Positions 60,284-60,686 of a stretch of 64,000 nt of DNA are shown piece after piece. Origin of the DNA: Eledone cirrhosa (lineage: Eukaryota); the NCBI GenBank assembly GCA_964016885.1, contig OZ024742.1:326306001-326370000 (forward strand), written 5' to 3'. The notes beneath the pieces were generated by a model. That model was not told where the DNA came from and searched no databases. It was given only the letters and a program-made list of their open reading frames with translations. How positions within the stretch are numbered: the first letter of the stretch is position 1; each line of letters starts with the position of its first letter. The position numbers and the translations under genes were made by a program.

Positions 60284-60686
60284 ATAATATAAGATCAAAA
60301 GATGGTTAAGAGAGTTCCATGTATTTTATTATGCGCATTTCAAAAACAAATATCATCATGAGATGACATTTGCGTTTTCGTCAGATAAAATAGGGAGACA
60401 TGATATGAAGGTTAAAAAACACTTGTGAATAGTGCAGTTTTAAATCAACTGCACTATTCACAAGTGTTTTTTAACCTTCATATCATGTCTCCCTATTTTA
60501 TCTGACGAAAACGCAAATGTCATCTCATGATGATATTTGTTTTTGAAATGCGCATAATAAAATACATGGAACTCTTTTAACCAACTTTTGATCTTATATT
60601 ATTTATACTCCAGTCCTACAAACTGTAGAGTGCTACTTATCCAATATCTGCATTGCTTTATTGTACTACAATAAAACTCACCTCTT

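Follow-up and report, generated by a model that had tools for sequence, protein, structure and literature searches.

An inverted pseudo-LTR (pLTR) accompanied by a tail on one side only is an established architecture of Penelope-like retrotransposons; the origin of both the inverted repeats and the one-sided tails is stated as open in the pertinent sections of PMC3846280 and PMC8557442. Self-priming at the inverted junction has been proposed before (PMC3846280), and the two accounts, in these sections, offer self-priming or endonuclease resolution as explanations, whereas the geometry of the copies described here favours two primed cDNAs. The Adineta Pen2a type (PMC3846280; scheme in PMC8557442, Fig. 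2), as described there, resembles our copies in its head-to-head pLTRs, the tail on one arm, the target-site duplication, the short overlap at the inverted junction, and the hammerhead in the pLTR, but its tail measures 30–40 nt, compared with ~87 nt in our case. According to section 11 of PMC8557442, the Hydra clade is characterized by a CxCX5C linker together with CxxC and CxH endonuclease motifs, by RWK and DKT motifs near the N-terminus, and by the lack of CCHH; a C-terminal GIY-YIG-type domain, cysteine motifs, (TA)n targeting and a hammerhead are features which our element appears to share with that clade. For the PAc (Poseidon) enzyme, the main text of PMC11167929 reports that both strands of an AT-rich target are cleaved and extended in vitro and that two fixed reverse transcriptase (RT) starts bracket the tail; our element appears similar in these respects, but PAc belongs to a different clade. 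The abundant copies of these telomerase-related elements in the genome studied here yield counts that separate the models.

Twin priming of L1 elements reportedly goes back to Ostertag and Kazazian (2001). In this process, both ends of a break prime on one RNA, and an inverted segment is joined to a direct one (PMC2246262, in the part concerned with inversions). Unlike in L1, the inner site in our element lies at a constant distance of ~90 nt from the outer site, and the cDNA started at the latter would usually pass the inner site, resulting in a palindrome instead of a plain inversion. No application of twin priming to Penelope-like elements turned up in a search of the main texts of freely accessible papers. 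The origin of inverted copies and of their junctions is not dealt with in the main text of PMC11167929, and the accessible part of bioRxiv 10.64898/2026.07.22.740005 holds nothing further on the junction.

The copy discussed here is located in a 64,000-nucleotide stretch of Eledone cirrhosa DNA (“the window”) belonging to a genome of 3.0 Gb. It is a palindrome composed of a head-to-head pair of 3' ends of what is, judged by its motifs, a Hydra-type Penelope-like retrotransposon. Repeats in the window were mapped by a filtered self-BLAST; an unfiltered search of the whole window was dominated by microsatellites. The tail-less arm (“S arm”; 60284–60449, minus strand) is a pLTR segment that extends from GTT (-254/-255, with position 0 at the tail end) to a short 3' end and includes a 7-nt spacer. 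The junction (60437–60449, without strand assignment) is made up of GTT (60437–60439), the spacer TTAAATC (60440–60446) and AAC (60447–60449), with GTT/AAC constituting a 3-bp overlap common to both arms. The tailed sense arm (“L arm”) covers 60447–60689 on the plus strand, starting with the shared AAC; its section common to both arms (60447–60602), with a 5' end 10 nt shorter, is followed by a one-sided tail of ~87 nt (60603–60689, plus strand), which is missing from the other arm. Over ~155 nt, the two arms differ at 2 positions. Between 60429 and 60457, the plus strand reads antisense through the 7-nt spacer up to the GTT/AAC overlap, and sense from there on.

Within the tailed arm, a minimal type I hammerhead ribozyme motif (CTGACGA ... 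GAAA) with a palindromic helix III is predicted at 60494–60564 (plus strand), with cleavage predicted after 60556; the motif is mirrored on the minus strand of the other arm. Core and helix III were read in the window segment against the description in PMC4209133, as far as that covers them. An Rfam search returned no hammerhead, only sub-threshold matches, nearly all of which were miRNA hairpins. Outside the arms, an inverted ~37-nt copy of the right flank (60237–60273, minus strand; copy of 60722–60758 with 2 mismatches) separates the tail-less arm from the (TA)n on its left. Comparable flank copies occur at loci L083 and L093 and, weakly, at L109; our guess is a templated insertion during repair, and a hairpin model could also yield such a piece. 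A (CA)n(TA)n tract at 60201–60236 (plus strand) matches 60688–60727 and may represent a target-site duplication or tail-end slippage. Runs of (CA)n directly past the tail end were also seen at L041, L049, L053, L060, L084, L104 and L121, and in the window at 60688–60697, perhaps reflecting slippage when reverse transcription starts.

In longer copies, a coding frame containing RT-type motifs and a C-terminal endonuclease region precedes the palindrome segment. At L212 (G000:C1:59458644-59460967), the tail-less arm of an inverted copy contains an open frame of more than 600 amino acids with an RT region followed by the endonuclease region, in which FDIASYYSSI, ITMGASDS and IYRDDGL are presumably RT-type motifs. 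Neither Pfam (L212) nor PDB returned an RT-family match for the element protein, and a GIY-YIG match in L031 (Pfam E=0.0033) was below the cut-off. The endonuclease motifs CNCPAKNKC, CNLC and CLH are present in L212, L208 and L075, CCHH is absent by eye, and the N-terminus is reached by none of the copies retrieved. On these motifs, the element is assigned to the C-terminal EN+ Penelope-like elements, Hydra clade, which supports the view of the preliminary description that a Penelope-like element produced the sequence.

The exact 29-nt junction of the window occurs in 91 copies genome-wide (control: 0), 30 of which, including that of the window, were examined. For the wider family, two tail motifs with 1,340 and 8,855 exact genome matches were used, and 90 loci per motif were retrieved from the first 100 matches listed, giving 180 loci; since these are the first matches listed, all on contig C1, both main samples are non-random draws. 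Removal of 3 duplicates left 177 loci, and in 115 of these the antisense tailed arm is immediately followed by a sense arm. The other 62, in which the 60 nt next to the tailed arm contained no sense arm, were left out; several of them are inverted with a second arm starting upstream of the reference, and others are solo or nested. In 11 of the 115 loci the second arm ends elsewhere than at the short 3' end, and the remaining 104 constitute the family junction set. An inverted 5'-truncated pLTR with a one-sided tail was, thus, found in 104/177 sampled tail-bearing loci, and in 30/30 exact-junction copies. The 104 junctions comprise 53 with inserts of 1–50 nt and 51 direct joins; that of L121 was re-called by hand. 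Exact tail-end matches number ~8,900 for the family of the window and ~22,000 for a second family.

In the preliminary description, the junction was taken as evidence of snap-back self-priming, i.e., of a nascent cDNA, in the orientation of the plus strand, that turned back on itself at GTT/AAC and served as the primer of the second arm without subsequent processing. Both strings quoted for this reading, the palindrome at 60429 and a copy at 41708, are located in the window exactly as written. The un-inverted natural copies L031 and L032 read alike across the spacer (CATATGTTGATTTAAAACTGCAC), so that the element already contains the GTT/AAC micro-inverted repeat before any inversion. The copy at 41708, which reads GTT-GATTTAA-AAC-TGCACTAT (41708–41728), had been termed unrearranged; it belongs to a second copy of the family of the window (41677–41878, plus strand; ~89% identical) in which a degenerate, inverted tail-end stub of ~14 nt (41677–41690) and filler precede the sense tail-less arm, so that this designation does not apply. 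Furthermore, reading antisense through the loop is no diagnostic sign, given that any off-centre palindrome does so on one strand. The overlap itself is real, recurrent in the 91 copies and above chance, and an arrangement compatible with simple snap-back is seen in 13/104 family junctions and 2/30 exact-junction copies. Against it, the supposedly self-primed second arm holds the ~87-nt tail, which its template arm lacks; because a self-primed arm can copy only the strand it folded on, the second arm should be contained within the first, and it is not in the window, in 28/30 exact-junction copies and in 59/104 family junctions. Two-tailed copies are rare (2/115), the 53 junctions with inserted bases in place of an overlap also speak against self-priming, and the 3-bp GTT/AAC fold-back is unstable (+1.5 kcal/mol; pairing probability 0.02–0.18). 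For the window copy, this simple form is already contradicted unless the tail of one arm was lost at the same site in nearly all copies, and we consider it highly improbable. What stands of the original reading is that the turn uses a pre-existing micro-inverted repeat; self-priming is not demonstrated by the junction, which is an ordinary member of the known architecture and no evidence for snap-back, and the family data favour twin priming.

Copies set in (TA)n have two fixed 3' ends, namely L (position 0, after the tail) and S, which lies at about -84 by BLAST and at -89 to -92 by exact match. Among the 30 exact-junction copies, the tail is on the shorter arm in 28, on the arm carrying the spacer in 2, and on both in none; of the 104 sampled junctions, 59 have a tailed arm that falls short of the other at the 5' end and 13 have one that extends beyond it, with the two arms level in the remaining 32. 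This majority geometry is predicted as well by a more elaborate snap-back, in which a tail-primed cDNA folds back, is copied to the target and nicked at S, whereupon the hairpin is opened and copied; such terminal resolution would flip the spacer and leave the tail on the shorter arm only, and it also predicts identical arms. It is in keeping with PMC8557442, where, in the relevant section, the tail is credited to endonuclease-mediated resolution, and with the requirement of the D. virilis endonuclease for the tail in cleavage, as cited in PMC11167929. Moreover, S is cut as DNA, considering that another repeat is inserted there in 6/90 loci of sample 1, and its TA register agrees with that of the S ends. 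The opposite geometry in 13/104 junctions, some with arms sharing only 30–55 nt (L072, L119), would require later flipping under this pathway. In 7/49 junctions of sample 2, the tailed arm stops inside the tail, and the two arms, therefore, have no sequence in common; for these 7 copies, resolution would have to involve nicking within a loop of single-stranded DNA. Also, in the in vitro data of PMC11167929, the RT starts at either end of the tail and does so on both strands, which argues against resolution. Taken together with the spacer lengths described below, we regard snap-back with resolution, the one form of snap-back still tenable, as a possible yet unlikely route, in which the fold-back of the preliminary description would be one step of the pathway, an idea to be held just as tentatively.

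The repeat found at S is ~190 bp in size, present in about a dozen copies in the window (e.g., 3520–3714), and inserts at -93. It was found there in L040, L046, L052, L064, L096 and L111, mostly with a 7–15 bp duplication. Six stops of the tailed arm at -93 in sample 1, initially candidates for collisions, turned out to be insertions of this repeat and are outside the count of piled-up stops that follows.

Tailed-arm stops cluster just past S in sample 2, the only sample concerned, with 14/41 mid-element ends within 31 nt (p=0.0006) and a stop density of 6.7 versus 1.9–2.7 per 1000 nt. They look as if the cDNA had met a second primer; AT-rich sequence is an alternative cause. Where the tail-less arm exceeds 500 nt, the tailed arm nonetheless ends at most 300 nt from L (16/22). 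At the far side, tail-less arms start at -256 to -261 in 51/104 junctions, and tailed arms end there in 36. A non-genomic G before the -258 start was found in 16/28 non-genomic cases (p=0.008), of which 9/16 could derive from the tailed arm's own end; on the tailed arm, the signal is weak (8/16, p=0.13). Such a G is what a cap would leave and fits the trace of an RNA cap. Arms ending exactly at the predicted hammerhead cut were seen in 2/104 junctions: in L049, both arms stop at -134, corresponding to window position 60557, and in L135, the tail-less arm starts there.

These ends bear on the proposal of PMC3846280 that antisense RNA folds back and primes a sense DNA arm, which, as set out there, accounts for arms placed head to head and for the tail of the primed one. 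The start of a capped sense RNA, however, would fit the fixed end at -258 and its non-genomic G, the arms of L049 both stop at a predicted sense-strand cut, and the 13 copies of opposite geometry are left unexplained. We judge this route very unlikely, if a shade less so than simple snap-back.

At diagnostic sites, the two arms differ at 17/866 within copies, as opposed to 38.8% between copies, and rare variants are common to both arms in 12/56 versus 41/5,036, several of those shared being CpG-type changes. This concordance fits a single RNA, but direct copying or gene conversion would predict it just as well. Site -88, at first scored as an arm-specific variant, is an alignment artefact of the short end and was excluded from these counts. 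At L041 and L092, the arms differ at 4 of 16–17 diagnostic sites, which suggests two templates or gene conversion. Possible cross-family chimeras of arms are L020 (4-C overlap) and L063, with nesting as the alternative; if real, they would need two RNAs. L116, initially taken to combine two families, is probably a nested insertion instead.

Duplications of 12–16 bp flank the whole unit in 6/87 copies versus 1.3 in shuffled sequence, with (TA)n masking them in most copies; they indicate a staggered cut. Long palindromes are prone to mis-assembly, and the (TA)n tracts concerned often harbour nested insertions, so that a later rearrangement, two adjacent independent insertions or an assembly artefact have to be weighed. 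Against these stand the constant pairing of a one-tail with a no-tail arm (30/30 exact-junction copies), the haplotypes common to both arms, the duplications around the entire unit, and the differences of the window arms at 2 sites and in their ends. Among the explanations considered, this one is the least credible.

Concerning the turn itself, a single 3-bp overlap is weak on its own, since at least 3 bp are expected in 10–12% of joins under the null. Setting aside the 53 insert junctions and a further 16 with both arms at the RNA start left 35 direct joins for the overlap test. The mean overlap was 1.6 bp versus 0.88–0.91 bp from two nulls, with the observed value possibly slightly inflated by a caller that crosses single mismatches, which the null does not; overlaps of at least 2 bp occurred in 19/35 (null 22–23%) and of at least 3 bp in 10/35 (null 10–12%; p 0.005 or less). 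The above-chance microhomology at turn-points, suggested earlier as a check, is, hence, borne out. It is not diagnostic of snap-back, because twin priming expects overlap too; its use is real, modest, and expected under every model. Inserts of at least 7 nt match nearby element sequence in 16/25 cases, compared with 7.8 when shuffled. The centre of ten joins is CATATG, a palindrome with zero spacer that provides 6 bp between two strands (-4.4 kcal/mol) and no hairpin within one.

With the tail-less arm at the RNA start, spacer lengths are bimodal (27 of up to 3 nt, 4 of 4–30 nt, 7 of 31–100 nt, and 13 above 100 nt). A simple loop-closure model, a crude one of our own making, expects 73% of spacers of at least 4 nt to fall at 4–30 nt; these easiest fold-backs account for only 4/51, and the dominance of zero-length and >100-nt spacers speaks against resolution of a fold-back. 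Favouring that pathway, a short local fold is present at the turn in seven loci (L071, L074, L077, L089, L138, L169, L176). Together with four loci in which a short second arm stops before S (L078, L106, L108, L161), they look like true fold-backs. Tandem re-copies of the last 8–18 nt of an arm were noticed at the junctions of L188, L203, L088, L031, L002 and L009, with an 8-nt unit repeated three to four times in L188 and an 18-nt unit three times in L031; they resemble telomerase-type realignment at a template end.

The model we prefer, and hold to be rather probable, is twin target-primed reverse transcription that starts at two fixed positions on a single RNA and is followed by end-joining. 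Consistent with it, the copies have separate fixed 3' ends, independently variable 5' ends and, in some cases, arms without common sequence; the in vitro support comes from PAc, i.e., by analogy from another clade. The observed duplications would result from a staggered cut of the (TA)n target, made presumably by the element's own endonuclease. One cut end would prime at L, the tail end, and the other at S, ~90 nt inside, in agreement with the two observed ends. The S-primed cDNA would run ahead, often to a putatively capped RNA start at -258, with the L-primed cDNA trailing and often stalling, as the observed ends suggest, just past S. The cDNA 3' ends would then, in line with the junction types observed, pair by 1–6 bp, or be joined blunt or via templated filler, each extending on the other, with joining carried out by the RT or by host end-joining. 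In the window copy, the 3-bp GTT/AAC overlap would have served this purpose. A palindrome would arise only where the L copy passes S, and an L1-like inversion otherwise.

A more far-reaching version has, in our estimation, an even chance of being correct: Penelope-like elements would integrate by programmed twin priming, with both target ends priming at two hard-wired sites of a single capped RNA, the polymerase that trails colliding with or displacing the leading cDNA, and the cDNA ends fusing so that second-strand synthesis consists of each cDNA priming on the other. If true, the tail, the inverted pLTR and the junction overlaps would all stem from a single reaction, and the RNA cap and the ribozyme cut would be recorded in thousands of genomic copies.

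The second family is present in the window as one-tail palindromes at 29306–29542, 41243–41431, 54324–54531 and 61593–61796, the last with its tail on the shorter arm. Inspection of 30 of its loci by eye revealed the same forms as in the family of the window, with L226 and L232 stopping inside the tail. Palindromes of other families are found at 2017–3395, 15260–15527, 30747–30854, 35496–35659, 43446–43730 (interrupted by the ~190-bp repeat), 45605–45688 and 55505–55762; hammerhead-like words (CTGATGA/GAAA) were noticed in several of them. The region 17200–24660 consists of long tandem arrays rich in GTT/GGT, with periods of 9–42 bp, possibly representing low-complexity coding sequence on the minus strand. 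Finally, at 54607–55022, a long (TA)n tract is bordered on its two sides by a near-perfect inverted duplication of non-repetitive flank, ~95 bp in length, with no element seen in between.
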